Source of the DNA: Candidatus Heimdallarchaeota archaeon
GTDB taxonomy: Archaea > Asgardarchaeota > Heimdallarchaeia > Heimdallarchaeales > Heimdallarchaeaceae
Direction of reading: 5' to 3'
DNA length: 64,000 nucleotides
NCBI GenBank assembly: GCA_018238545.1
Contig: JABCTC010000014.1
Coordinates: 1 to 64,000, forward strand
Below, piece after piece: positions 2,483-60,244 of the stretch (positions are counted from its first letter, which is position 1; every line of letters starts with the position of its first letter). Both the position numbers and the translations under genes were made by a program. The notes under the pieces were generated by a model, which was not told the DNA's origin, made no database searches, and saw nothing but the letters and a program-made list of their open reading frames with translations.

Positions 2483-4177
2483 ATGGTTTCAATAAAAACA
2501 AGTTATACGAAGATGAAAGAATTACTCGGGAAAGATGTTACTATCGAAGAATTAGATGATCTTCTAGCATTTGCAAAGTCAGAAATCGATGACTATGTTG
2601 AAGAGGAAGACATGCTAGTGATTGACATAAAAACTAGTATTAGACCAGATCTATGGTGTCCAGAAGGAATGGTAAGGGAAATCAAAGGAATCCTTGAACA
2701 AGAAGCAGGAATTCCTGAATATGAGGTGAAGAAAAGCAATTACAAGGTAATTGTAGATCCAAAACTTGCAACTTCTCGTCCATATATTGCATGTGCTATA
2801 GCAAAGAATCTTAACCTAACTGATTATTCCATTAAACAGCTGATGCAACATTCAGAGAAAATTGATAACTCATATGGAAGAAAGAGAAAACGATCATCAA
2901 TTGGAATGTATAACCTTTCAATGATCGAATCACCAATTGAATACAAGGTGATTGATAAATCACATAAATTCGTACCTTTGGAACATGAAGAAGAAATGGA
3001 TTTACCAACAATATTGGAAAAACATGAGAAAGGACATGAATTTGGTGATATTGTAAAAGGATACGGGCATTATCCGCTCCTTCTTTCAGCTAATGGAACG
3101 ACTCTTTCCCTTCCTCCTGTGATAAATAGTGATGATGTAGGGAGAATAACAGAAGATACCAAAGAATTTCTTATTGAAGTAACTGGAACAAATTACGAAA
3201 CAGTTAATGTTGTTCTTAATATACTATGTCAAAACATGGTGGATTATGGTTCAGATATTTATAGCGTTGAGATAATCTACCCTCCAGAAATTAGAAAAGA
3301 AAATGAAGTAACTCCTCTTCTGAAGAAAGAAACAATAATTGTTGATTTAGACAAGATTAACAGAGATCTAGGTGTTAATCTAACTCCTGATGAAGTGATA
3401 GCTGCATTAAGGAAAAGAAGATTTGAATGTAAAGCAACAGGCAAGTCCGAACTTGAAGTAGAAATACCACCTTACCGAAAAGACATTTTACACTGGGTTG
3501 ATATAGTAGAGGAAGTTGCAATAGCATTAGATTACAATAAAATTGGCGCAACAAAATGGGAGGTTATAACAACTGGGGGACTTCTACCAGAAACTGAAAG
3601 CGAAAACAAGGTACGAAGTATTCTAGTTGGTTCTGGAGGGATTGAGATATTTTCCAATATTCTAACTGAACCAGAGATTTTGACTACGAATGTTAATTTG
3701 ACAAAAGTAGATTTAGTCAAATTGCAAAACCCTGTTAGTTCAACGTACAGCGTGCTTAGAGACAGACTCTTTCCTCTCTTAATTAATGTTCTATCAAAGA
3801 ATACTCATGAAACCTATCCTCAATTAATTTTTGAGGTAGGTGAAGTAGTTAAGATTCTAGGTAAAAGAGTTCTAACACAGACTCATGCATCTTTTGGTTT
3901 TGCAGGAGCAGAGGCTAGCTTCGAAGATGTTCATAAGCGATTACACATGATGCTAGATTTGCTAGATACAGAGTACAAAATCGAACCGATATCACACCCA
4001 ACTTTCACAGAAGGAAGAAGTGGTAAAATAATAATTGCTGAAAAAACATGTGGAATTATTGGAGAAATTCATCCTAGTGTGTTGGAGCTGAACCAAATTT
4101 GGGTTCCGGTCGTTGTCTTCGAAATCCAATTGCCCTCTATACCTACATTGAACTGTAAAAAGAAATTCACTGATTAA
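2483..4177 (+). CDS. pheT: Phenylalanine--tRNA ligase beta subunit
   Basis: RPDLW, SLPPVINS, IEVTGT, PPYRKDILHWVDIVEE, GEIHP. Lies 9 nt after pheS with GGTGA SD. Confidence 0.96.
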   Translation: MVSIKTSYTKMKELLGKDVTIEELDDLLAFAKSEIDDYVEEEDMLVIDIKTSIRPDLWCPEGMVREIKGILEQEAGIPEYEVKKSNYKVIVDPKLATSRPYIACAIAKNLNLTDYSIKQLMQHSEKIDNSYGRKRKRSSIGMYNLSMIESPIEYKVIDKSHKFVPLEHEEEMDLPTILEKHEKGHEFGDIVKGYGHYPLLLSANGTTLSLPPVINSDDVGRITEDTKEFLIEVTGTNYETVNVVLNILCQNMVDYGSDIYSVEIIYPPEIRKENEVTPLLKKETIIVDLDKINRDLGVNLTPDEVIAALRKRRFECKATGKSELEVEIPPYRKDILHWVDIVEEVAIALDYNKIGATKWEVITTGGLLPETESENKVRSILVGSGGIEIFSNILTEPEILTTNVNLTKVDLVKLQNPVSSTYSVLRDRLFPLLINVLSKNTHETYPQLIFEVGEVVKILGKRVLTQTHASFGFAGAEASFEDVHKRLHMMLDLLDTEYKIEPISHPTFTEGRSGKIIIAEKTCGIIGEIHPSVLELNQIWVPVVVFEIQLPSIPTLNCKKKFTD

Positions 4178-5126
4178 TCGGAAGTTTTGTCTTCTTTTTT
4201 TTCTTTTCTGCTTTTTTCTCTTGTTTATCAAGCATTACTATTCTTTCCCAAATCTTATCCATGATTTTTTTCAATGCCTCACTACTCTCGGATGTTTCAA
4301 TTATTGGGATTTTTACTTTTGTTGCTTCTTCAACAAGATAAGTCTGAATATTCCTGATTTCAGAGAAGGCGTTAATATACCGATCAGGTTTCCTAAGTTC
4401 TACTTCTGTACCTCTTTCTTGGATTCTTCTTTTGTGCTCCTCTTCCTCTTCTAGATATAAGAGAATCAATATAACATGAGCTTCATCCAATACTGAAGGA
4501 TTCAGTATATTTGGTGCTAAGTGAACACCTTCAATGATTGAATTTTCCCTAGAATAAAGAGCAGTTTGAATTGCTGATTCGACTCCAACAATAACATGAC
4601 GGCATTGTTCCTCGTATCCTACTATCGACTGTCTAAGAATAGGGTTAAGTTTAGGTTTCAATTTTTTATAAGCTTCATAGCTGCTTGAATGAAGCTCTGG
4701 GATTAGTTTTGAGGAAATTGTTTGTCGAAGAACCTGTCTTATCATATCAGTACCTATAATGTGAGAAATTTCCAATCTTTGGGACAGTTGTGAAGCTATT
4801 GTGCTCTTTCCAATACCTGGGACTCCTGCAAGCAAAATGATAATCGGTTTGTAATTTTGCCCCCCCTCGAATACGATATATCTTTCCGCAATTTTAGGGT
4901 CAATGCTTTTAATTTCAGAAGTTATAATTTGAACTAGTTCTTCCTTACTTATAGGCTCTGAAGATACGCTAACAATTTGTTCTACTCTGCTCGCTATTTC
5001 AAATACTAGGTTGGGATCCATTCCAATAGAATTTAAAGAAGTTGACAATATACCTTTTGAGAAATATTCGTACCTATCCTTTCTAAGTTGGATTTTGAGG
5101 AAATTTTCATGTTGATCCGAATTCAT
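4167..5126 (-). CDS. 2-phosphoglycerate kinase-family P-loop kinase with ATP-cone-like N-terminus
   Basis: FSKGIL N-terminus, GVPGIGKST Walker A, IGTDMIRQ, PELHSSSY, IIEGVHL. Confidence 0.85.
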   Translation of the reverse strand: MNSDQHENFLKIQLRKDRYEYFSKGILSTSLNSIGMDPNLVFEIASRVEQIVSVSSEPISKEELVQIITSEIKSIDPKIAERYIVFEGGQNYKPIIILLAGVPGIGKSTIASQLSQRLEISHIIGTDMIRQVLRQTISSKLIPELHSSSYEAYKKLKPKLNPILRQSIVGYEEQCRHVIVGVESAIQTALYSRENSIIEGVHLAPNILNPSVLDEAHVILILLYLEEEEEHKRRIQERGTEVELRKPDRYINAFSEIRNIQTYLVEEATKVKIPIIETSESSEALKKIMDKIWERIVMLDKQEKKAEKKKKKTKLPINQ

Positions 5127-5296: not shown

Positions 5297-6193
5297 ATGG
5301 AAACAGAAACTCAAATATTCATTCAAGATAGAGATAAGAGGCTATTTTCCCGAGGAATATTAGCTAAAAAACTTAGATTATTAGGAATTCCTTCTTCAGC
5401 TGGATATGAAATATCTATTCAAGTGTATAATGAGATTGCTAGACTTAAAGAAACAAACATTGAAAAAAATATACTTGATGATGTTGTTTTTGACATACTA
5501 AAATCCAGTAATTATAAGGAATGTGCAGATAAATATATGCTTGTTGAAAAGTGGAAAGCATCATCCATGCCTTTGTGGATTCTTATTGCAGGTGCAATAG
5601 GTGTTGGAAAAAGCACACTATCGCAGAAGATAGCTGGTGATCTGGGTATTCAACATGTTATAGGGACTGATGTTGTTAGAGATATTTTGCGGAAAATATT
5701 GTCAGTCGATGTCATGCCGGAATTGCATTCTCCCTCTTATAGTGCATATAAAACTCTGAGACCAATTTATAGCAGTAGATTTGAGGAGGTGCTACTAGGG
5801 TTTGAAAATCATTCCAAATATGTTAATCTAGGTGTAGAGGCCGTTCTTTCTAGAGCTGCCACTGAATCCGTGTCAATAATAATTGAAGGAGAACACCTTT
5901 TACCTGCTCTGTTTGATGAAACTATCCTCTCACAACCAAACGTACTATATATGACAATTGCAATTCCAGATCCTCTGTTGCACAAGGAGAATCTAAGTTC
6001 ACAGTACACCAAAGAAAGAGATGATTTAATAAACCACTTTAATGATATAAGGAAAATACACGATCACATTGTTAATGAAACACGAATTCGAAAGTTGCCC
6101 GTTGTTGAAACAAGTAGGGATTTGAACCCACTAGATACTGTAAGAAAAATTGTTGTGGACAAAATCGTTTCTATGGTTACAACTAAATCATAA
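5297..6193 (+). CDS. 2-phosphoglycerate kinase-family P-loop kinase (paralog of divergent neighbour)
   Basis: FSRGIL, GAIGVGKST, IGTDVVRD, PELHSPSY, IIEGEHL. Confidence 0.85.
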   Translation: METETQIFIQDRDKRLFSRGILAKKLRLLGIPSSAGYEISIQVYNEIARLKETNIEKNILDDVVFDILKSSNYKECADKYMLVEKWKASSMPLWILIAGAIGVGKSTLSQKIAGDLGIQHVIGTDVVRDILRKILSVDVMPELHSPSYSAYKTLRPIYSSRFEEVLLGFENHSKYVNLGVEAVLSRAATESVSIIIEGEHLLPALFDETILSQPNVLYMTIAIPDPLLHKENLSSQYTKERDDLINHFNDIRKIHDHIVNETRIRKLPVVETSRDLNPLDTVRKIVVDKIVSMVTTKS

Positions 6194-11703: not shown

Positions 11704-12660
11704 TTAAAAACCCATTGTATCGAGAATGTGTTTAATTATTTTGAATTTATATGCAACATTCATAACATCATTTACGTTTGTAGTCATTCCAACTAAGATT
11801 TTGTCTTCTAAACAGCTTTCAACTATAATTTGCACAACTCCTGCATTGAGGAATTTAATCTCTTCTTCTGACTGTAACATTTCAAATATTACTCTGGGAT
11901 ATTTGGTTAAAGTTTCTAGAACATAGATGATTTTCTTTTCCTCAAGATTTCCTGCATAAAGCTGTCCCATTGAACCATGTTCTTTTGGAAAAATATATGC
12001 TGAAGCGGAAGGTGAATCGCAGCTTCTTATAGAGGAAAATAATAGCGATGTTGTTGCTCTTTTATTTGCTTCATCCAAAATTTTTTGTGTCATTTCAGAT
12101 ACTGGGATCATAGGTACAGTTTCAAATGGTTTTATTTTTTCAAATGTTTCAACTCTTGCTTCAACGCTATCCATAACAGGATATCTTACTGCAGGAGCAA
12201 TTACAAATTTCGGTTTTTCAATTCCAAATCTATCAAAAATGCTTTCTATTTTATTGCGTAAAGATGAAGTGCCTTCTGCCATTATGCTTTTACAGGTGAG
12301 TTCTATCAAATCTGTTGAATCGTTTGCATTAAGAGAGTTAAGAAGGGTATTCCCTAACACCTCAATATAATTTTTGATTAGGGGACGAAGTTCTAAGGAA
12401 AAATTTTCTACACGAGAAACAAATAAAATAGTTAAATCAATGAATGTAACATAGGTGGCCCTGAATTTTCCTCTGAAAATAGTAATTTCGCTATATCTTC
12501 TAACCCATTGATAAAATTCTATTGGATGAACAAAGTATCTATTGACCTCAATTCTCTCTATTTCACTGTTCGTTTTATCAATAGAAAAGATGTTAGCACC
12601 TTCAGTGTCATATATTATTATTGCTACTAAGGGGCTAATATCAATCTCTGGGAATAGCAT
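11704..12660 (-). CDS. Hypothetical protein: longin-like N-domain + roadblock-like 'KYP' C-domain (paralog A)
   Basis: C-terminal ~120 aa align by eye with ORFs 12803 and 14051. N-terminus has a beta-beta-alpha-beta-beta-beta-alpha hydrophobicity pattern. Confidence 0.6.
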   Translation of the reverse strand: MLFPEIDISPLVAIIIYDTEGANIFSIDKTNSEIERIEVNRYFVHPIEFYQWVRRYSEITIFRGKFRATYVTFIDLTILFVSRVENFSLELRPLIKNYIEVLGNTLLNSLNANDSTDLIELTCKSIMAEGTSSLRNKIESIFDRFGIEKPKFVIAPAVRYPVMDSVEARVETFEKIKPFETVPMIPVSEMTQKILDEANKRATTSLLFSSIRSCDSPSASAYIFPKEHGSMGQLYAGNLEEKKIIYVLETLTKYPRVIFEMLQSEEEIKFLNAGVVQIIVESCLEDKILVGMTTNVNDVMNVAYKFKIIKHILDTMGF

Positions 12661-12802
12661 AAGACCTCTGTCTTAAATTATGCAATTCTTTGCTAATAAG
12701 CTTATTGGACAATTTTATTGTGCTAATAATTGCAAAAATTAATCAACGGAACCAAAGAAATATTTTTAGATTTTATCGTTAAAAGGAATATGAGGTTATG
12801 TA

Positions 12803-13384
12803 ATGAGCAAGAATTCTAGTAGTTCAGAATCACCATCAACAAAAATATCCTCCAGAAAGAGAAAAACTACAAAAAAAGATATATTTGTAGAAATGGAAGA
12901 TGTCGCTTACGAGGCTTTAAACATCTCAAAACGCAAACTAAAAAGTGGACAATATCTTAAAGCTTTTCTGGATCAAACTTCGTCTAAAGAATCTGTTCTT
13001 GAAGCAATAAAAGTTACTGTCGATGCTTTATTAGATAGCATTGCTTCTGATTTGGACTCACTTTCAGCAGCTGCTTTGGTTCCACACCCTGAAAGCGAAG
13101 ATTCAAAAGCAATTGTTAGAGGGCCTTTAAATCGAGATGTTGTAAAACAAATTTTATCTATATTTAGAAAATACCCCCCTGTTATTAATGACCTTCTTGG
13201 GTCTGACGACGAATTGAAGGTTCTTGATACTGGAATTGGTTATGTAGTATTAGAAAATTGTCAGAAGGATAATTACTTGGTTGGGATAGTTAAGAAGCAA
13301 AAAGATGTTGATGAATTATCTAGAAAGCTAAGACATGTACAAAATGTAGTAGTAGACAATACATTGCTTCTTGATGGATTGTAG
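12803..13384 (+). CDS. Hypothetical protein: basic/Ser-rich N-tail + roadblock-like 'KYP' domain (paralog B)
   Basis: ILSIFRKYPPVINDLLGSDDELKVLDTGIGYVVLE aligns with paralogs A and C. GAGG SD. Confidence 0.6.
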   Translation: MSKNSSSSESPSTKISSRKRKTTKKDIFVEMEDVAYEALNISKRKLKSGQYLKAFLDQTSSKESVLEAIKVTVDALLDSIASDLDSLSAAALVPHPESEDSKAIVRGPLNRDVVKQILSIFRKYPPVINDLLGSDDELKVLDTGIGYVVLENCQKDNYLVGIVKKQKDVDELSRKLRHVQNVVVDNTLLLDGL

Positions 13385-13389
13385 AATAT

Positions 13390-14043
13390 TTAATGTCTAT
13401 CAACCAAACTTTTTTTACATTTTTCACATATATCTTGTTTTAAATGTACTTCCTTGAAGCAGTTCCAACATTTCTTTGAAACTGTTTCTTGATTTGGATA
13501 ATCAAAAATTATCTTATCTATTTTATCTGCGATTTCAAGTATTGCTTTGTTCCTTCTAGACAATGCAAATGAGAATATTTTAACTAATGGATTGTAAAAT
13601 ATCACAGCTAGAACAGCTAAAATAACTGAAGAAATTCCGATAATTAGTAATGCTTGTGCATTTTGCCAAAATACTGTGATTAACACACTTAATACGCATA
13701 ACAACACTGCTAAAATGATTGTCGAACTTATTTTAACTCCAAACAGTTGCTTGTTTGTTAATGAGTTAAAAAACTGTTTAAATCTTGATCTCTTTGAAGT
13801 AAAATCAAGATTAAGGAAATTACCCTTAACAGAACATTGAATCTCTACTAAAACTAACCATTGTTGTATTCTTGTTGTGAACGATAATATATTATTTTCT
13901 TGTAATCCAATGTTTGGGTATTCATCTTTCAGTTGTTGAATAATATATTTGAAAAGATTTGATGTATTCTTAATGTCTGTATTGATATCTTTGGAAAATA
14001 TAATGCATTTATCTTTGTTTGTAAAATCGATTATACTCACCAT
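13390..14043 (-). CDS. Two-TM membrane protein with C-terminal Zn ribbon
   Basis: Two hydrophobic helices, CWNC...CEKC. Starts 7 nt after the stop of 14051-15118. Confidence 0.65.
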   Translation of the reverse strand: MVSIIDFTNKDKCIIFSKDINTDIKNTSNLFKYIIQQLKDEYPNIGLQENNILSFTTRIQQWLVLVEIQCSVKGNFLNLDFTSKRSRFKQFFNSLTNKQLFGVKISSTIILAVLLCVLSVLITVFWQNAQALLIIGISSVILAVLAVIFYNPLVKIFSFALSRRNKAILEIADKIDKIIFDYPNQETVSKKCWNCFKEVHLKQDICEKCKKSLVDRH

Positions 14044-14050
14044 CAGTTTT

Positions 14051-15118
14051 TTAGAATGTGGATATTAGAAACTCAGATATCATGACATTAACCAATTTCA
14101 TTCTTTTAGCAATGATTGGTATTTCATCTCTGTTTTTTGTTATACTTACAAGAATTCCTTTATCAGATCCCTCTAGAATAACTACTCCATCTCCTGCATC
14201 TATAGTTTTTTCATCAGATTCTGTTTCCAAAGTTTGTTTTACAATTTCAGGATATTTTGAAAGAATTCCTAAGACAAATTCTCCATGTTTTTCTGACATA
14301 CCGAATGTGATAGTTTCTAAAGATCCTTCCTCTCCTGTATAAACAAAACATACACCAGTTTTCGTTGATAATCCTTTTACGATAGAGGATAATACCCTCT
14401 CAACTGATAGTCTCTTTGTTTCTTCTAATAGCTGTTGTGTTAGTTCTACCTTACTGGAATCCTTAACTGTTTCTGTTATTTTGTCTGACTTATGACCAAT
14501 GAATTCAAGAAGCCCCCCTACATCTGTAGATGCTGTTGAGTGTGCAGTTTGGGCTGAACTAGAAGTTGCTGTAGGCTGTGAGTATTTTTGTTCTACTTCT
14601 GAGGTTTGCTCAACTGATGTTGAAACTGGCTTTTCCGCCTGAACTGGTTCATCTATATCTGATTCATATTGCTGAGGTTTTTTGGTTGGATAATAATCGT
14701 ATTTAATCTGACTTGCTGCTCTTTCGGAGATTAGGCTGCCTAACCGTTTAATCAAAGCTGTTTGTGATTTAGGTTCCATTTTATCGATAGCTCCGTAATC
14801 TTGCAGTTGATCTAGAAGCTTACTCTTAACAATCTCAATAATTTTCTCTGCTTCATGATCTTCAATATCTGGTAGAAACATATTGCTTAGTATTATGTTA
14901 AAGAAAAGATGGTAGTCGACTCTAAATATCTCGTTTTTTAGTGTTATGGTTTGTGATCTTCTTAATTCTTCTCTTGTTTTTGCACTTGTATCAATTACTT
15001 GAAAAATTGTTGAAAAAGAAGTTTTTTGGTTAATTACTTTATCGAAAATCATGTCTTCATCTAGTGTAAAGAGGCTAAAACCTACAAACTTTTTCCAAGG
15101 TAAATCGAACTCACTCAT
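14051..15118 (-). CDS. Hypothetical protein: longin-like N-domain + S/T/Q-rich linker + roadblock-like 'KYP' C-domain (paralog C)
   Basis: VLGILSKYPEIVKQTLETESDEKTIDAGDGVVILE. N-domain RRSQTITLKNEIFRVDY matches RRYSEITIFRGKFRATY of paralog A. Confidence 0.6.
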   Translation of the reverse strand: MSEFDLPWKKFVGFSLFTLDEDMIFDKVINQKTSFSTIFQVIDTSAKTREELRRSQTITLKNEIFRVDYHLFFNIILSNMFLPDIEDHEAEKIIEIVKSKLLDQLQDYGAIDKMEPKSQTALIKRLGSLISERAASQIKYDYYPTKKPQQYESDIDEPVQAEKPVSTSVEQTSEVEQKYSQPTATSSSAQTAHSTASTDVGGLLEFIGHKSDKITETVKDSSKVELTQQLLEETKRLSVERVLSSIVKGLSTKTGVCFVYTGEEGSLETITFGMSEKHGEFVLGILSKYPEIVKQTLETESDEKTIDAGDGVVILEGSDKGILVSITKNRDEIPIIAKRMKLVNVMISEFLISTF

Positions 15119-15216: not shown

Positions 15217-16320
15217 CTATTTCTTCTTTTTCTTTTTCTTCTTTTTATCCTCTTTTTGTTGTTGTTTTGCTATTCTCTTCCATTTTTTGAGATTTCTATT
15301 TGATTCTTGTCCAAAAACCACAGCTGAATACTTTCTTCCTTCAGTTTCACCTAAACCTCTAACAGTCAGATCTTCTTCTTCCTTTTTCTTTGCTTCTTTG
15401 AGCATCTGTTGAATAATCTCCTCCCTTCTTTTCATCTTTTCTTGAAGATCTGTATCAACTTCTTGCTCTGGTTCAGAAACTACCTCTGGTTCTAGAACTT
15501 TCTTTGTAGCAATATCTTTTTCAATCTTAGTGATTTCTTTGACTAACGAGATATCCTGGGTTCTTAAGGCCTCTTCATCTACTTCTACATGTAGAATTTC
15601 TTCTTCTGTAATAGGAACACTTGATGCTTCTCCAACGAATACAAATTTGTGAATATCTTCTGGAATATTTTCTGGTTTGATTAGAACATCTTCATCAATT
15701 ATAGGTTCTGTGACTATTGGAGTTGAAGAATCTAATGTTTCAATTTCAGTTTGATGTTCTTCTATGATTTCTAATTGTTCAATGAACTCTTTAGTTTCTA
15801 ATACCTCAGTTTCTTTAATCTCTCCCTCTGTTTTTAATTTTTCAATTTTTGATTCCAGTTCAGGTTCCGTCACAGAAGGATCTACTGTAGATTCGGTGGT
15901 TTTGGTTAATAGTTTTTCAGGAGTTGTTTCTTTTTCTTCGGAAGGTAATGGGATTTTTTCTTGTTCAATTATTTCTTTAATCTCTTCCAAATTTTTATCA
16001 GAAACAATCTCTTCTACATCTTCTCCTGATACTGCTTTTGCTAAACCGATAGTAACCTCTTCAAGCTCTCTAGATCTTTTAACCTGTTCATGAACAATTT
16101 CTTCTTCTTCAACAACGCTTTCTTCAACAATTTCATGAACAATTTCTTCTTCTTCAACAACGCTTTCTTCAACGGTTACCTCTTGTTCTTTCAGTTCATT
16201 TGCTTGAGCTGCTTCTTCTTTAGCTTTGGTCTTTGCTAAATCATACAGATATTGGGCAAATCTAGATATATTCTTCTTGTCCCATTCAAGCATTTCATTC
16301 TCGTTTTCGTCGGAATTCAT
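15217..16320 (-). CDS. Highly acidic, low-complexity (likely disordered) protein with poly-Lys C-terminus
   Basis: E-rich throughout. Short possibly ordered ends (WDKKNISRFAQYLYDLAK; YSAVVFG..WKRIAK). Ends in a run of Lys. Confidence 0.7.
   Translation of the reverse strand: MNSDENENEMLEWDKKNISRFAQYLYDLAKTKAKEEAAQANELKEQEVTVEESVVEEEEIVHEIVEESVVEEEEIVHEQVKRSRELEEVTIGLAKAVSGEDVEEIVSDKNLEEIKEIIEQEKIPLPSEEKETTPEKLLTKTTESTVDPSVTEPELESKIEKLKTEGEIKETEVLETKEFIEQLEIIEEHQTEIETLDSSTPIVTEPIIDEDVLIKPENIPEDIHKFVFVGEASSVPITEEEILHVEVDEEALRTQDISLVKEITKIEKDIATKKVLEPEVVSEPEQEVDTDLQEKMKRREEIIQQMLKEAKKKEEEDLTVRGLGETEGRKYSAVVFGQESNRNLKKWKRIAKQQQKEDKKKKKKKKK
16087..16173. repeat. Intragenic tandem duplication: two identical 42-bp copies, 45-bp period
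   Basis: TTCATGAACAATTTCTTCTTCTTCAACAACGCTTTCTTCAAC at 16087-16128 and 16132-16173, encoding VEESVVEEEEIVHE twice. Confidence 0.95.
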
Positions 16321-16518: not shown

Positions 16519-17562
16519 ATGAGTGATTCCCTTAAACCATTATTAATTCGATTGGTAGATTCTTTCTCCTATTATCTGATAAATGAAGCAAGAATTAGCA
16601 CTGGTAAAGAGGTTGTAAAGTCAAAAATCAATGATATTGCATATAGAAAAGCAAGTGGGAGATTTGGAGAAGTATATGTCATTGACGTGTTTTACAGTTC
16701 TGAGCATGGGGATCATAAGAGCAAATTAGCTATTAAATTCATTGATAATGTTGAAGATATAATTACAGAAATAAAAAATACTGCACTTCTAGAAAAGAAG
16801 TTTTCAACTCGGTCTATAGTTAGAATCCCACGTTATATTTATGTAAATTTAAAAAAACCTACTTATATTGCCTATGAAGGAATGACAGGAATCAACTATG
16901 AGGACGCACATTCAGTTTCTGATAAGAGCTTCTGGGCAGGCTATATTCTATCAATTATACATGAAGGTAAGCCAAAGCCGGTGATTAAAGATATCTATGA
17001 AGAATTATACAGACGATTGATTTTATCCGTATTTGGTGGTTCTGAAGAAGAACAAAGAATAATGGAAAAATCCAAAGTCTTGATTGAGATGGTTAAAGCT
17101 TCTCAAGGAGGTAGCGATTCTTTTGGTGATTATCATCAAAGCAACCTTATGATTCGCGTTGCTCCAGAGGGTGAGACTGTGAGTATAGCATTAATTGATC
17201 CAACTTTCTGGATGCAAGGATCTTTTGATAGATTTGAAGATATAGGGACATTCTTTGGAAGACAAGCATTTCTTGAATTTCGAGTTACAAAATTGCTAAC
17301 GTCTGCGATAAGTGATATTCAACAATTTATTCAAGGTTATTCTGTTCACTTGAAAGAAATAAATGGTGTTCCTTTGGAGGAAATGTATACAAAAGGGTAT
17401 CCCATAGATTTGTTTTTAGCAACATGGGCTATGATGGATGTATTAGATAAAACTAATAGCTTCAACATAGCTGCTGATCATCCAGACATTATCTTGTTAA
17501 AAGAACTAGCACATTATCTGTTAACAGAACAACCCATAGGAAATGAAGTAAACAATTTTTGA
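16519..17562 (+). CDS. Protein-kinase-like (PKL/APH-type) phosphotransferase
   Basis: SGRFGEVY Gly-loop, LAIKF Lys, helix-C Glu (ITEI), catalytic loop FGDYHQSN, metal-binding IDPTF, downstream EDIGTF. Confidence 0.75.
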   Translation: MSDSLKPLLIRLVDSFSYYLINEARISTGKEVVKSKINDIAYRKASGRFGEVYVIDVFYSSEHGDHKSKLAIKFIDNVEDIITEIKNTALLEKKFSTRSIVRIPRYIYVNLKKPTYIAYEGMTGINYEDAHSVSDKSFWAGYILSIIHEGKPKPVIKDIYEELYRRLILSVFGGSEEEQRIMEKSKVLIEMVKASQGGSDSFGDYHQSNLMIRVAPEGETVSIALIDPTFWMQGSFDRFEDIGTFFGRQAFLEFRVTKLLTSAISDIQQFIQGYSVHLKEINGVPLEEMYTKGYPIDLFLATWAMMDVLDKTNSFNIAADHPDIILLKELAHYLLTEQPIGNEVNNF

Positions 17563-17613: not shown

Positions 17614-18456
17614 ATGACGGATTCTAATTCAGAAATAATGATATCAGCATATGCAATTGCTAAGATACTAGAGGTAGATGCTCTAGATACTTCAAAAGAA
17701 TCTGCTGGTGTTCTCTTAGGTTATTTTGATGAAGAAACACAGAAGCTAATAATAACTGATTTTGATACTGGAAAACAAAGACAAACATCAACCTTTGTCG
17801 TTTTAGATGATGAAGCTCTTGTTCAGATTGTTACAGATTTGCAGAAAAGAGATAAGAAAGAAACAATTGTTGGCTGGGCACATACGCATCCTTCATATGG
17901 TTGTTTCCTCTCTGGTACAGACAAGGGAACTCAAAGAATCTATCAAAATCTCTTCTCAAAAGCAGTAGCTTTAGTGATTGATCCTTCAAAATATTATCAG
18001 TCTCAAAAGAGTTCTGATTTAGAAATTCAGTTCTTTAGGTTAATAGATGATATAGATTACAAAGCAATACCTTATCATCTATATTTTGATGAACACACCA
18101 TACACATTTCTAACTTAGCCAAGGTTGACCTCAAATGGGAATTGCCAAAACTAAGAAAAGAAGAGGTTCTACTTCTACATAAGAAGTTGGAAACGATTGT
18201 GACTCCGTCTTTAATTGAACAAGATAAGAAATTACTTCATGGACTTGTTGATATACTCAGCGAATCTCATGAAATTCTTTCAGAAGTTGGCGAAGAGAAA
18301 GAAATTCTTGAAACTATTGATAAAAAACTACACTCAATAAACGAGAATGTTACCCGAATTTACAATGAGGAAACAAATAACATCTATTCAATAATGAATG
18401 TAGTAGCTGTAATTGTATTAACTATATCTTGGTTTTTAATTGCTTACTTTGTGTAA
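17614..18456 (+). CDS. JAMM/MPN+ metalloprotease (Rpn11/AMSH-like) with C-terminal coiled coil and TM anchor
   Basis: KESAGVLLG (catalytic E), VGWAHTHPSYGCFLSGTD (HxHx7Sx2D), AVALVIDP. Ends IMNVVAVIVLTISWFLIAYFV*. Confidence 0.85.
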   Translation: MTDSNSEIMISAYAIAKILEVDALDTSKESAGVLLGYFDEETQKLIITDFDTGKQRQTSTFVVLDDEALVQIVTDLQKRDKKETIVGWAHTHPSYGCFLSGTDKGTQRIYQNLFSKAVALVIDPSKYYQSQKSSDLEIQFFRLIDDIDYKAIPYHLYFDEHTIHISNLAKVDLKWELPKLRKEEVLLLHKKLETIVTPSLIEQDKKLLHGLVDILSESHEILSEVGEEKEILETIDKKLHSINENVTRIYNEETNNIYSIMNVVAVIVLTISWFLIAYFV

Positions 18457-50390: not shown

Positions 50391-51314
50391 ATGAGTATTA
50401 ATCTTTCATCACTAAAGGATCAAATGTTTGCAATCCATATAATCGATCAAGGTATAAGTTTACATAGTGAGAAATTCTCTGATTTTCTTAACATAGACAA
50501 TGTTTTGGTTTTGGGGTTTATCTCTGCTCTTCAAAGTTATACATATTCAATTGGTGATGAAGAAGTTCTCTCGATGGACTTTGGAAAAGCGAAGTTTTTG
50601 TTTAGATCTCTTTATGATAAAAAATTACTTATTGTTATAATGAAGAAAGCTTTATCTCAAGAACAAGAACAAGCTATACTCGATGAATTAGCAACAAAAT
50701 ATGAGTTCATAGTATCTGATAAAGATATATCTGAAATTCAATCTCTTATTGATATTAAAGAGAGATTAATACCACTTGAATTAGTTGTTGAAATGAGGAG
50801 AAAAGGTGAAAAGCTCCCATCGTCAGTTTCAATTGACGACGCAATACTTATTCCTCCTCCACCTTCTATCTTAGCAATACCGGAGGTGAAAGTGGAACAA
50901 TTTTATCTAGAGGTTTTGGTAAACGAAATTGTTCTTACAGAGGAAATCATGAATCAAATAAAGAAAACTCTTAGTAACTTCTTTCTAGGTTACAAAAAAC
51001 TTTTAGTGGGTCTATTTGTAATTGCAAAAAATAACGCTCTTATTCCATTCGCTTTTAGCAGAAAACCAATAGACGAAGTATACCCCCTAATACAGAATGT
51101 TCTAGCCAATCCTGTTATTCGAGATAAAACATTAGATACGGATCATAACTACCCTCAGAAGATTGAGATAGAAAACCAAGAACTCTGGGTTCTTACAAAT
51201 ACAGCGAGCAAACATGCTGCTCGTACTGTTTTGTTCAGTCTTTCAGAAGACGAACTTAACTCAATGATTCCACATTTGAGCAGAATTATGCATTTTTTCA
51301 AGAAGATAGTGTGA
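50391..51314 (+). CDS. Longin-like N-domain protein with Pro-rich linker and second alpha/beta (roadblock-like) domain
   Basis: AIHIIDQGISLHS..LVLGFISALQSY..SMDFG..LLIVI is a typical Asgard longin-like pattern. IPPPP linker. Confidence 0.6.
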   Translation: MSINLSSLKDQMFAIHIIDQGISLHSEKFSDFLNIDNVLVLGFISALQSYTYSIGDEEVLSMDFGKAKFLFRSLYDKKLLIVIMKKALSQEQEQAILDELATKYEFIVSDKDISEIQSLIDIKERLIPLELVVEMRRKGEKLPSSVSIDDAILIPPPPSILAIPEVKVEQFYLEVLVNEIVLTEEIMNQIKKTLSNFFLGYKKLLVGLFVIAKNNALIPFAFSRKPIDEVYPLIQNVLANPVIRDKTLDTDHNYPQKIEIENQELWVLTNTASKHAARTVLFSLSEDELNSMIPHLSRIMHFFKKIV

Positions 51315-51455: not shown

Positions 51456-51845
51456 TTGGTGGATAAAATGAGCTTATCAGGACAACAGATAGAAAAAATG
51501 CTACATGAGTTTGAATCAAATACTGAAGGAGTACTTGGTTGTTCAATAATAACTGCTAAGGATGCACTATTATTAGCTGAATCCTCACAAAAATTTGAAC
51601 GATTGGTTATTCAATGGTTAAGTGAAAAAATGTTATCTTTAGCAAAAGAATCGCTTAAACAACTCATGAATGAATTTACTTTGATGAGTGTAACCATTGA
51701 GGAAAAAGATAATTTAATATATCTGAGACCAATCGGTGAATATTACTATGCTGTGATAATTACAACGAAAGAAGAAAATAGAGGTCTTTTAGAGCACAAT
51801 ATCAAGAGATTATTGCAACAGCTTGCCCCAATGATGATTAAATAA
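51456..51845 (+). CDS. Roadblock/LC7-domain protein
   Basis: GVLGCSIITAKDALLLAE..VTIE..IYLRPIG..NRGLL. Probable start ATG 51468. Confidence 0.75.
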   Translation: MVDKMSLSGQQIEKMLHEFESNTEGVLGCSIITAKDALLLAESSQKFERLVIQWLSEKMLSLAKESLKQLMNEFTLMSVTIEEKDNLIYLRPIGEYYYAVIITTKEENRGLLEHNIKRLLQQLAPMMIK

Positions 51846-57063: not shown

Positions 57064-59871
57064 GTGAGATATCTAACGAAAATTAAATACCACATTGGTT
57101 GCTTTGTACTGATTTGTTGTTGCATTTTCTCCTACAGTTCAATTATGAACGTGCAATCATCTAATCTAGTTAATGTAAAAGAAACTAAACTATCTATAAA
57201 TGATATATTTAGAGAAACAAAATTTCTTGAACAATTCACAAAAGCAAACTGTGATACTGAATTCAGGGTGGTTGTAAAAATATCTCCAACTACAACTGAG
57301 TTATATTTGGAGAAATTTGGGCACAGTATATCTTATTTTCATTCTTTTCAAGGTCTAGCTATCTCGATTTCCAAAGAAAATTTACTTCATCTGATACATA
57401 AACAGAAGATTAACGAAATTTGGAATAATTCTCTAATTTATGGTGCAAATTCAGTCAATGAACTCTTGATTAATGACACAAGATCCCTCTGTGATTTCAA
57501 TGAAAAAATAGGTTCAGATTTTTTGTGGAATTTAACTCTATATGGAGACGATGTAAAAATAGCCATCTTGGATACAGGATTGAACGCAAGTAATCCAGCT
57601 TTGAATCAAACAATGACTCATCAAAGTAGGATAATTGGTAAATGGAATTTTCTTCAAAGAAATGAAGATGTTTTCGATGATAATGGACATGGAACAGAAG
57701 TAGCTGGTATTATAGGAAGTAATGGATTATTCGGTTATATGTCTGGAGTTGCTCCTAATTGTAAATTCTTGATAGGGAAAATCTTAGACTATAATTCAGT
57801 TGGAACAGTAGAAACACTTATTCAGGGAATTGATTGGGCTATAGAGAACGATGCCGACGTAATTAATCTGTCGTTAGGAAAAGTAGTTTCAAATTTAACC
57901 TCTCCAGAAGTAGAAGCAGTAAATTTTGCAGTAAAAAGCGGCGTATTAGTATGTGTCTCAGCAGGCAATGCTCGCGGAATAGAAGAGTTTGGTTACAATG
58001 ATCTTCACACAATACTAAGCCCTGGAATTGCCTCTAAAGCAATTACAGTAGGAGCTATTGATAATAATAATGTCCTTTATGAATACAGTAGTGCTGGACC
58101 AGTAGCTATAAATTTTGACAGCGAAACTTCTGACTATCTATATGACTCAATTCCTAAAACTACAACTTGGCTAAAACCAGATGTTGTAGCGCCCGGTGTT
58201 CTTCTTAATACTACATCTGCAAATGGAAAAAATTTGAATGTAGTTTCAGGAACTAGTTATGCAACTGCTGTTGTTTCTGGGTTATGTCTCCTTCTAATAC
58301 AACAATACTATGACACAGATCCTTCCTTAGTGAAAGCTTCATTAATTAAAACTTGTAATCCAATATCGCTGAATGTTGTTTCCCCATTTTTACAGAATAT
58401 TAACATACCAATTGCTCCATATTTTCAAGGTTCTGGTTTAGTAGATTCTTCTGGGGCTTTTTCATATATTAATACTCATGGAGATTTTGCATTAACGAGT
58501 TCATTAATCCCTTACTTGGACAATTATTATTTCAAAAATACAGAAACAAGTTTCAATATCCAGTTATACGTACATCAAGCACTTGACAACATCGAACTAA
58601 CAATTTCTGAAAACTTAGCAAATGTTTTGTATGTTTCTCCTCTTCCCTCTTCATTAGCTGTGGGTCAATATGATCTCATGATAAATATTGATACTGAACA
58701 AGCTCTAACTGGTTTCCATCAAGGATTTTTAATGTTTGAAAGTGCTGATTCAATTCAAAAAATTAATGTTGCATTTAATGTGAAAAAGGCTTATGGGAGA
58801 ATTTTACTAGATTACCAAGATGAAGGAAGCGATATCAGATATTCTTTAAATGGTAATCTATACAACATTATTTCTATTTCAAAGAAATATGGTCTAATAC
58901 CCATAATTAATTCACAAGATATACATTACTCCACATTTAACTCTATGAATCTCAATGAATTTGAAGTGATTGCATTAATCAATTCGAAGAATACCTTGCT
59001 TAACCCAATTTCAAACGCAGATGTAGCTGCTCTTTCTGATTACGTTCTTCCAGAAGGAGCATATTCAGGAGGAGCTTTAATTGTTTTACCATCAAGAAAT
59101 AGTGATTTTAATATAATAAACGAGATACTTTCTGAAGTTAATGTATCCTATTACCAAGATTTTTCTGTAAATGTTAGTTTAGATGTATCTTCATCGTTTA
59201 ATATCTTACTTTCAGACCCATTTTTCTTAAATAATCTTTTTCTTCCATATCCTGTTTCATTAAATGTAACTAATACAAATTACAATCCTTACAGTGACAA
59301 ATTGGTTTATGGTAACCAACATTATTCAAATGGTTCTCTCTTCGTAGGGGGAAACACTTTAGACATGTTTCTGGATTCTCCTTATCTCTATTCATCCTAT
59401 GAATCTGAATACTCAGAAATTTTCGTGAGCGCATATTATGGTGATAATTATCAACTTCTTGAAAATATGATAAGTTCAACTGTGGTTAGAAGTTTGATGT
59501 TCAACTATTCTCTTAAATCCTCAGAGGTTTCTATAAAAGACAATATAATGATGACCATTAACTCTGCAAATACATTAAAAATTATGCCAAATTGGGAGTT
59601 TTATATGACGCTTTCAAATGAATATGGCACGCACGTTAAAGAAAACACGTTTGAGTCATTCGCTAATGGTACAACTATTTTCAATATGAAAATCGAAGAT
59701 ATGGATATCTCAGCAGGCTCGTACATTCTGAAAATTCATTCATTGTCTGGAACAGAATCTTGGGATATCAAAATTGTTGCATCTGTTTCATTAGGACCTA
59801 TAATAATTAGTGTATCGCTAGTTCTATGCAGTGTTTTCTTAATTATGTTTAGGAAGAAAACTAAGAAGTAA
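57064..59871 (+). CDS. Membrane-anchored S8 (subtilisin-like) serine protease with long C-terminal extension
   Basis: Triad ILDTG / GHGTEVAG / SGTSYA, oxyanion AGN, KPDVVAPG, signal peptide, C-terminal TM + RKKTKK. Confidence 0.9.
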   Translation: MRYLTKIKYHIGCFVLICCCIFSYSSIMNVQSSNLVNVKETKLSINDIFRETKFLEQFTKANCDTEFRVVVKISPTTTELYLEKFGHSISYFHSFQGLAISISKENLLHLIHKQKINEIWNNSLIYGANSVNELLINDTRSLCDFNEKIGSDFLWNLTLYGDDVKIAILDTGLNASNPALNQTMTHQSRIIGKWNFLQRNEDVFDDNGHGTEVAGIIGSNGLFGYMSGVAPNCKFLIGKILDYNSVGTVETLIQGIDWAIENDADVINLSLGKVVSNLTSPEVEAVNFAVKSGVLVCVSAGNARGIEEFGYNDLHTILSPGIASKAITVGAIDNNNVLYEYSSAGPVAINFDSETSDYLYDSIPKTTTWLKPDVVAPGVLLNTTSANGKNLNVVSGTSYATAVVSGLCLLLIQQYYDTDPSLVKASLIKTCNPISLNVVSPFLQNINIPIAPYFQGSGLVDSSGAFSYINTHGDFALTSSLIPYLDNYYFKNTETSFNIQLYVHQALDNIELTISENLANVLYVSPLPSSLAVGQYDLMINIDTEQALTGFHQGFLMFESADSIQKINVAFNVKKAYGRILLDYQDEGSDIRYSLNGNLYNIISISKKYGLIPIINSQDIHYSTFNSMNLNEFEVIALINSKNTLLNPISNADVAALSDYVLPEGAYSGGALIVLPSRNSDFNIINEILSEVNVSYYQDFSVNVSLDVSSSFNILLSDPFFLNNLFLPYPVSLNVTNTNYNPYSDKLVYGNQHYSNGSLFVGGNTLDMFLDSPYLYSSYESEYSEIFVSAYYGDNYQLLENMISSTVVRSLMFNYSLKSSEVSIKDNIMMTINSANTLKIMPNWEFYMTLSNEYGTHVKENTFESFANGTTIFNMKIEDMDISAGSYILKIHSLSGTESWDIKIVASVSLGPIIISVSLVLCSVFLIMFRKKTKK

Positions 59872-60244
59872 GTACCTGATAAACTTTCTTTGCATGTTTT
59901 CCAAGAACATTCATTGCTAAAGCAAGGCTATAATTCTCTTTTGAAGCTGCTAATACAATAAATCTATCCAAATTTTGGAGAATAACAAATCCTTCAGATC
60001 CTTTTATTATTACCTGATCAAGGCTTCCACATTTAATCTGCCCTACTGTTTGTTGTCCTGCCGAATTCAAAGCGGAAGCTAAAGCAGACATGATTACTTG
60101 GTCTGTTCCTTTTTCAGCAAAAAAGGCTAGTTCTTGACCCTCTGAGCTAACTACTGCAATTGCTTCCAAACTACAATCTTTTGAAATTTCTCTTAAAATT
60201 TCCAGTAAATTATTCTTTTTTTCAGGCGCTAAATCTCCAATCAT
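59861..60244 (-). CDS. Roadblock/LC7-domain protein
   Basis: EAIAVVSSEGQELA..MSALASAL..LDQVIIKGSEGFVIL. Confidence 0.85.
   Translation of the reverse strand: MIGDLAPEKKNNLLEILREISKDCSLEAIAVVSSEGQELAFFAEKGTDQVIMSALASALNSAGQQTVGQIKCGSLDQVIIKGSEGFVILQNLDRFIVLAASKENYSLALAMNVLGKHAKKVYQVLTS

Follow-up and report, generated by a model that had tools for sequence, protein, structure and literature searches.

A conserved cluster of three diverged roadblock paralogues, two with predicted longin domains, as a candidate small-GTPase platform in Heimdallarchaeaceae

The window analysed here comprises positions 1 to 64,000 (forward strand) of contig JABCTC010000014.1 in the assembly GCA_018238545.1 of Candidatus Heimdallarchaeota archaeon, and it contains three neighbouring paralogous genes, referred to as A, B, and C. 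Their open reading frames, coordinates, and strands (-, +, -) are as given in the original prediction, as are the sequence segments quoted there. Gene A (11704-12660, minus strand) encodes 318 residues with a predicted longin-fold domain (residues ~10-145; 12226-12633), a linker carrying a conserved motif (residues 171-185; 12106-12150), and a roadblock domain (residues ~192-318; 11707-12087). Gene B (12803-13384, plus strand) encodes 193 residues, in which a basic and conserved N-terminal extension (12803-12982) precedes a roadblock domain with its own α1 helix (12986-13372). Gene C (14051-15118, minus strand) encodes 355 residues with a predicted longin domain (residues ~8-141; 14696-15097), a long variable linker with one conserved amphipathic island (residues 200-210; 14489-14521), and a roadblock domain (residues ~225-355; 14054-14446). 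A and B are divergent, with 142 nucleotides between them, and B is convergent with C, from which it is separated by a gene for a 217-residue membrane protein with a C-terminal zinc ribbon (13390-14043, minus strand).

The three proteins share a homologous C-terminal domain of ~125 residues. Local alignment scores were 157 (A-B), 171 (A-C), and 119 (B-C) against maxima of 63-67 from 2000 shuffles, and comparison of profiles built from the orthologues gave probabilities of 98.9% (A-B), 98.8%, and 97.4% over 117-128 columns. Pairwise profile alignment had been set beforehand as the refuting test of the shared domain, and the alignments were significant for all pairs (97-99%). The domain had been described as unannotated, and no Pfam or NCBIfam family was found for A, B, or C. 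PDB sequence searches with the three proteins returned no significant match, and neither they nor any of 36 aligned domains reached the cut-off of Pfam Robl_LC7 (PF03259). The sequence link to known roadblock proteins is weak (3LEQ, E-value 0.41); a profile of all four paralogues, including gene D described below, matched the canonical roadblocks of the genome with a probability of 60% (E-value 9e-5, 112 columns). ESM Atlas searches gave leads only, namely unnamed clusters at about 0.9 and Robl_LC7-bearing clusters at 0.85-0.90.

The AlphaFold2 model of A, with a mean predicted local distance difference test (pLDDT) score of 69.5, has elements in roadblock order in residues 192-316 (helix at 192, strands at 218 and 231, helix at 242/255, strands at 270, 277, and 288, and helix at 296). 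The fold was matched by MglC (Z 10.4, root-mean-square deviation (rmsd) 3.0, 110 aligned), the LD2 domain of Mon1 (Z 10.3), LAMTOR (Z 10.2-10.3), and the roadblock of an Asgard Rag-like GTPase (LokiRagO C-domain, Z 9.8-10.0), all of which are tied, and GAF/IclR-type domains come next (Z ≤9.6); MglB matched with Z 9.5-9.9. For B, which was not folded, and for C, the roadblock fold is assigned by homology to A. The models and fold searches agree with the secondary-structure orders proposed originally, roadblock at the C-terminus and longin at the N-terminus.

The tripeptide KYP, located at 11896-11904 in A, 13169-13177 in B, and 14249-14257 in C, forms the kink of the long α2 helix in the model of A (helices 242-253 and 255-263), as expected from its proposed position in the dimerisation helix. 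It was found in 24 of 24 C orthologues and, as K/R-YP, in 31 of 31 B orthologues. The A orthologues predominantly carry RFP or KFP (KYP in 7 of 34, proline absent in 3), and D mostly has KYL, KFL, or other proline-less forms at this position. Judged from these alignments, KYP is not a family-wide signature; the "KYP domain" of the original prediction stands as a domain common to the three paralogues, and the motif that named it varies among A orthologues. Within each paralogue, few blocks are as conserved as the α2 segment (1.00 in C, 0.95 in B, and 0.91 in A for residues 241-250), and the KYP-containing block of C (281-290) is identical in all 24 orthologues. The segment is conserved within but different between paralogues, a pattern expected of specific interfaces. 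Dimers of longin and roadblock domains assemble via β3 and the top helix, which is α2 in roadblocks, and present a two-helix face to which small GTPases bind (Levine 2013, PMC3747258); dimers of this type are known from Asgard roadblocks (Tran 2024, PMC10933270). The gene clustering and the behaviour of such folds elsewhere suggest that A, B, and C may form specific heterodimers. A complex prediction for full-length A and C, run without controls, scored 0.00 and gives no evidence either way.

The N-terminal domain of A has longin order in residues 13-145 of the model (ββ-α-βββ-αα, with α1 split in two) and matched AP-3 sigma (Z 8.2, rmsd 3.2, 104 aligned). That of C, in which many polar residues are invariant, was folded alone (pLDDT 86) and also has longin order; it matched AP-3 mu (Z 10.2), VAMP7 (10.1), and delta-COP (10.1), with ~120 aligned for these three, and a CPLANE chain (9.3), and its first 23 fold matches were all longin-bearing entries. 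The two N-domain profiles showed no significant similarity to each other (probability 0.36%, E-value 0.17), and the single-sequence score was 59 against a shuffle maximum of 55. The longin-like domain originally attributed to both A and C is therefore supported at the level of fold and not of sequence. The segment RRxxxITxxxxxFRxxY, cited as a shared feature, is present in both and forms their best N-domain alignment, but most C orthologues have KK in place of the initial RR. The predicted fold, together with the sister grouping of A and C in the roadblock tree, points to a common N-domain. Both proteins have lost the canonical α1 motif of Asgard longins (small-residue, L-x-x-G-L-x-x-A-x-x-x-F type), so their longins are more likely to be specialised interaction modules than a catalytic core of the Mon1-Ccz1 type.

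Two paralogous N-terminal longins with invariant arginines (R67 in A; R49 and R66 in C) could be read as a longin GTPase-activating protein (GAP) complex of the FLCN-FNIP, GATOR1/NPRL2-NPRL3, or C9orf72-SMCR8 type, a reading that we find barely credible. Neither A nor C has an arginine in the β4-β5 loop, which we take to be the arginine position of longin GAPs, or a DENN or winged-helix C-terminus, the C-terminal domain being a roadblock. The GP motif of the β1-β2 loop (defined in PMC12290439) is also absent from both proteins; A has an invariant Gly21 without Pro, and C has neither.

The tri-longin subunits of Rab guanine nucleotide exchange factors (GEFs) (Mon1-Ccz1, HPS1-HPS4, and Fuzzy-Inturned) resemble A and C in having a longin followed by a roadblock-type domain and in occurring as two diverged paralogues, and they are the best full-length structural matches of A, taking the top nine Foldseek hits (E-values 5e-6 to 2e-4). 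The domain order is identical to that of LD1-LD2, the C longin aligns to residues 114-264 of Drosophila Mon1 and the A roadblock to 265-392, and members of the D family weakly match Intu_longin_1 (E-value 0.0011) and Fuz_longin_1. It is nevertheless very improbable that A and C are orthologues or direct precursors of Mon1/Ccz1, with B standing for LD3 of a Rab-type GEF. The Foldseek TM-scores reach only 0.2-0.27, and a top rank for tri-longin proteins would be expected from any chain with a longin plus a roadblock; Mon1 LD2 is tied with MglC and LAMTOR as a fold match; Asgard canonical longins that weakly match the Intu and Fuz longin families are common; and the trio is limited to one family. 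In tri-longin GEFs, a third, lamtor-type domain is completed by the αX helix of the LD1-LD2 linker (Klink 2022, PMC8833172). A and C have two domains rather than three and thus no αX-βX completion, which places them outside this group; they also show no significant sequence similarity to it, lack the canonical α1 motif, and are accompanied by an additional roadblock-only paralogue. B was rejected as a counterpart of LD3 because it is a complete roadblock, not of the lamtor type, and has an α1 of its own that is homologous to the α1 of A and C, and the C-terminal domain of A was rejected as LD3 because the Mon1 range aligned to it comes directly after LD1.

The segments outside the folded domains also carry conserved islands. 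The linker of A (151-185) has low confidence in the model and contains the invariant or nearly invariant residues E174, P178, F179, and P183, and its conserved part may be a short binding motif; the flexible linker of C has a conserved island as well. The N-terminal extension of B has 12 lysine or arginine residues among its first 50, followed by a conserved helical segment. A profile comparison detected no relation between this N-terminus and the linkers of A, C, or D; the idea that B retains the linker helix of D, raised by hidden Markov model matches that reached D position ~153, was accordingly dropped.

The fourth paralogue, D, was found via a sister-family match (P0129, library-wide E-value 1.9e-5). 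It is a single-copy gene of 327 residues at a separate locus (G000:C124:28760-29740, L119:4761-5744, plus strand) and has the architecture longin, linker, and roadblock in about 300-400 residues. Full-length D was found in 29 of 30 genomes of the family, in the sister-family genome, and in 11 of 12 genomes of a third family, in which P0132 is labelled Kariarchaeaceae by its source; among the matches listed from outside the order, coverage was limited to the N-terminal ~100 positions. The D roadblock is related to those of B (profile probability 97%), C (95%), and A (90%). Its N-domain is a typical Asgard longin in which the small-residue α1 motif is kept (canonical longin profile, E-value 1.6e-12), and D members also weakly match the Pfam family Clat_adaptor_s; the N-domain profile comparisons gave E-values of 0.016 (D-A) and 0.23 (D-C). 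By eye, the neighbours of D in G000 are a radical-SAM/TGT-like gene pair, with an IS200/605 TnpB-like open reading frame (L119:5811-7019) in between. A 726-residue protein in genome G036 (L162:1927-4104, minus strand) combines an Ig-like region, a membrane segment, a longin, and a C-terminal D-type roadblock (E-value 1.5e-13), representing a membrane-anchored form of the family. Two 287-residue proteins of family f4 in the same order (L166:944-1804; L167:2533-3393, minus strand) have a canonical longin and, by eye, a roadblock-like C-terminus, and they are possibly very diverged D proteins. A 284-residue protein of genome G158, from another Asgard class (Loki-type; L189:525-1376, minus strand), has a longin and then an apparent roadblock of an unrelated subfamily. 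No profile confirmed a roadblock in the C-domains of the L189, L166, and L167 proteins; by eye, each looks like a longin joined to a roadblock, and the proposal that the longin-then-roadblock order is exclusive to this order was not upheld.

The profile of the shared domain matched 28 of 30 Heimdallarchaeaceae genomes, with all three copies in 24. Beyond the family, it matched one sister-family genome, and a search of 368 further Asgard genomes gave no match. Only 10 proteins were matched among 1.8 billion representatives; in that search, the match to P0130, a repeat protein, was rejected as a chance hit. The homologues are named Candidatus Heimdallarchaeota or Heimdallarchaeaceae in the databases. 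Identity is 21-30% between paralogues and 37-90% between orthologues, and all paralogues occur in the genera of the family. The ratio of nonsynonymous to synonymous substitution rates (dN/dS) is 0.05-0.15 for the genes as a whole, with values of 0.03-0.12 for the roadblock domains and 0.27-0.43 for the linkers. By these sequence measures, A, B, and C are real genes under strong purifying selection, which bears out the proposal of an old duplication with retention. In the roadblock tree, built on few columns with long branches and a midpoint root, A and C are sisters (95/100), A, B, and C stand apart from D (100/98), and the branches of B are the shortest. In the simplest history, a duplicate of a longin-roadblock ancestor would have triplicated in the family stem, the longin would have been lost or replaced in B, and the longins of A and C would have diverged fast. 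Two irregular sequences were observed. A 713-nucleotide metagenome contig (P0076) joins the N-terminus of B to the roadblock of A at the common α1 motif and is probably an assembly chimera, possibly a paralogue recombination; in genome G010, B is apparently split by a frameshift and internal TAG stops (L020, G010:C191:2873-3452), through sequencing error or as a pseudogene.

The gene order C-B-A is constant in the genera compared, including both single-contig genomes, and the adjacency of the trio is maintained in five genera despite changing flanking genes. Gene E (15217-16320, minus strand, in the window), a candidate fourth component encoding 367 residues, is the immediate upstream neighbour of C and shares its strand in all 25 genomes in which it was found. 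Its product is acidic (28% D+E) and probably disordered; it contains short islands of conservation, and its C-terminal tail is rich in lysine. A search with the C-terminal segment, a short query, found it in 25 of 30 genomes of the family and in none of 52 other-family genomes of the class; a Pfam search found no similarity between E and LAMTOR1. A scan for sigma-70 promoters gave chance counts only, and the scan model is ill-suited to archaea.

The genes beyond E are usual neighbours. A kinase-like protein (16519-17562, plus strand), identified by eye and with no Pfam match, is non-obligatory; it is followed by a JAMM/MPN+ protease with a C-terminal hydrophobic anchor (17614-18456, plus strand; PF01398, E-value 1.4e-12). 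The frequency of kinase-like and JAMM genes at the locus, the loss of the canonical α1 motif, and the best longin matches, which are adaptin mu/sigma, COP, and VAMP7 rather than GEF longins, would fit a heteromeric scaffold or adaptor whose role lies outside small-GTPase control and which organises the kinase-like, JAMM, and zinc-ribbon neighbours or binds cargo as adaptin longins do. We consider this decidedly unlikely. Kinase-like genes have a much broader distribution than the trio, with one to five copies in 69 of the 82 genomes in the class; none was detected in the 12 family f7 genomes, and in G049 the gene does not adjoin the locus. The membrane gene is optional, in that two genera have it and three lack it at the locus, and the Z values among longins differ little and do not show function.

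The reading that we favour, tentatively and as somewhat short of probable, is that A, B, and C belong together in a single longin/roadblock platform specific to Heimdallarchaeaceae, with E as a scaffold, and that this platform docks a small GTPase encoded elsewhere. It builds on paralogy, predicted folds, domain order, distribution, constraint, and gene order, from which we infer the rest. The trio would have arisen by local duplication of a longin-roadblock gene, of which the single-copy relative D persists across the order. The roadblock domains would pair via β3 and the kinked KYP helix, and the disordered E would wrap the assembly through its short conserved islands. The lysine tail of E and the basic N-terminus of B may hold the assembly at the membrane, the role of LAMTOR1 in Ragulator. 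The conserved two-helix face would then dock one of the ~40 Ras-family GTPases of the genome (41 matches) and either place it or tune its nucleotide state. A more specific proposal, possible but on the unlikely side, is a membrane-tethered small-GTPase regulator that consists of the four components A, B, C, and E and derives from duplication of a single longin-roadblock gene, an independent parallel to the transition from a homodimer to Mon1-Ccz1 or Ragulator, in which the sister-family D would be the living pre-duplication state.

Several observations weigh against such a platform. Three roadblocks give no obvious even pairing, and longin and roadblock folds also have non-GTPase roles. An iterated profile of canonical Asgard longins (35 in the genome, D included) did not detect the N-domains of A and C. 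No Ras-family gene was found on this contig, and hence no client can be named; the neighbours in seven other genomes, assessed by similarity to the window genes and by eye, include no GTPase. Unlinked GTPase genes are usual in Asgards, where they are generally not in operons with the roadblock genes (Tran 2024, PMC10933270). In most genomes the genes are oriented such that they do not constitute a single operon (G051 has B, E, C, and the kinase-like gene on a common strand), and A was not detected in the 91% complete G051 assembly (710 contigs), in which B and C are retained. The last two points also favour the alternative that A, B, and C are independent homodimers with separate jobs and that their clustering is a relic of local duplication, as does the prevalence of homodimers among solved Asgard and bacterial roadblocks (PDB titles; PMC10933270); in the sister families, moreover, D exists as one copy and lacks a close paralogue as a partner. 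We regard this alternative as unlikely, if a serious one, as the trio stays adjacent across five genera while its flanks change, E accompanies C in every one of the 25 genomes, and the distribution of E is that of the trio.

A heteromeric platform of this kind would resemble Ragulator (LAMTOR1-5) and the C-terminal roadblocks of the Rag proteins in having several paralogous roadblocks and possibly an extended scaffold, for which composition and synteny make E a candidate. It differs in that two members bear longins and only B is roadblock-only, no GTPase domain is fused or adjacent, and E has a polybasic C-terminal tail in place of the N-terminal acylation of LAMTOR1. Myxococcus MglB and MglC share the roadblock fold with A, whereas the trio has a bulky kinked α2, fused longins, no mglA-like neighbour, and scores below Robl_LC7. 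Asgard longin and roadblock proteins, which are abundant and include fusions of longins or roadblocks to GTPases, have the same folds, typically in shuffled lineage-specific architectures (PMC10933270; bioRxiv 10.1101/2020.10.19.343400), and 130 Roadblock-superfamily clusters were reported in Asgards (bioRxiv 10.1101/2020.10.19.343400). The Lokiarchaeota Roadblock-Longin protein (PDB 8YQG) has the reverse domain order to A and C. The N-domain of D belongs to the common Asgard longin family, but the trio and D differ from other Asgard roadblocks as a distinct subfamily found only in this order, with clustered paralogues and a dedicated partner gene. No description of this family was found in the literature searched.

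Other genes of these types were observed in the window. A 307-residue protein with a canonical N-terminal longin (50391-51314, plus strand) is followed by a 129-residue roadblock-like gene (51456-51845, plus strand; Robl_LC7 E-value 0.039), which a 130-residue gene ~1.3 kb from E in genome G049 resembles by eye. A canonical Robl_LC7 protein of 127 residues is encoded at 59861-60244 (minus strand). A further divergent paralogue pair (4167-5126, minus strand; 5297-6193, plus strand), with a P-loop and 2-phosphoglycerate-kinase-like by eye, is conserved in relatives.

This analysis identified paralogue D and established that A and C no longer have the canonical longin motif and that E is strictly linked to C. 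Restriction to one family makes the trio a lineage-restricted parallel to the eukaryotic Mon1-Ccz1 and Ragulator, an analogue and not an ancestor, which limits the surprise. Since Asgard genes for small GTPases and for their regulators rarely lie together, assigning one to the other is still an open problem (PMC10933270), and this locus defines a candidate regulator complex from gene order alone, small enough for reconstitution. With D, the trio may provide a natural before-and-after pair for the change from a longin/roadblock homo-oligomer to a heteromer, which is how eukaryotic GEF complexes are proposed to have arisen.

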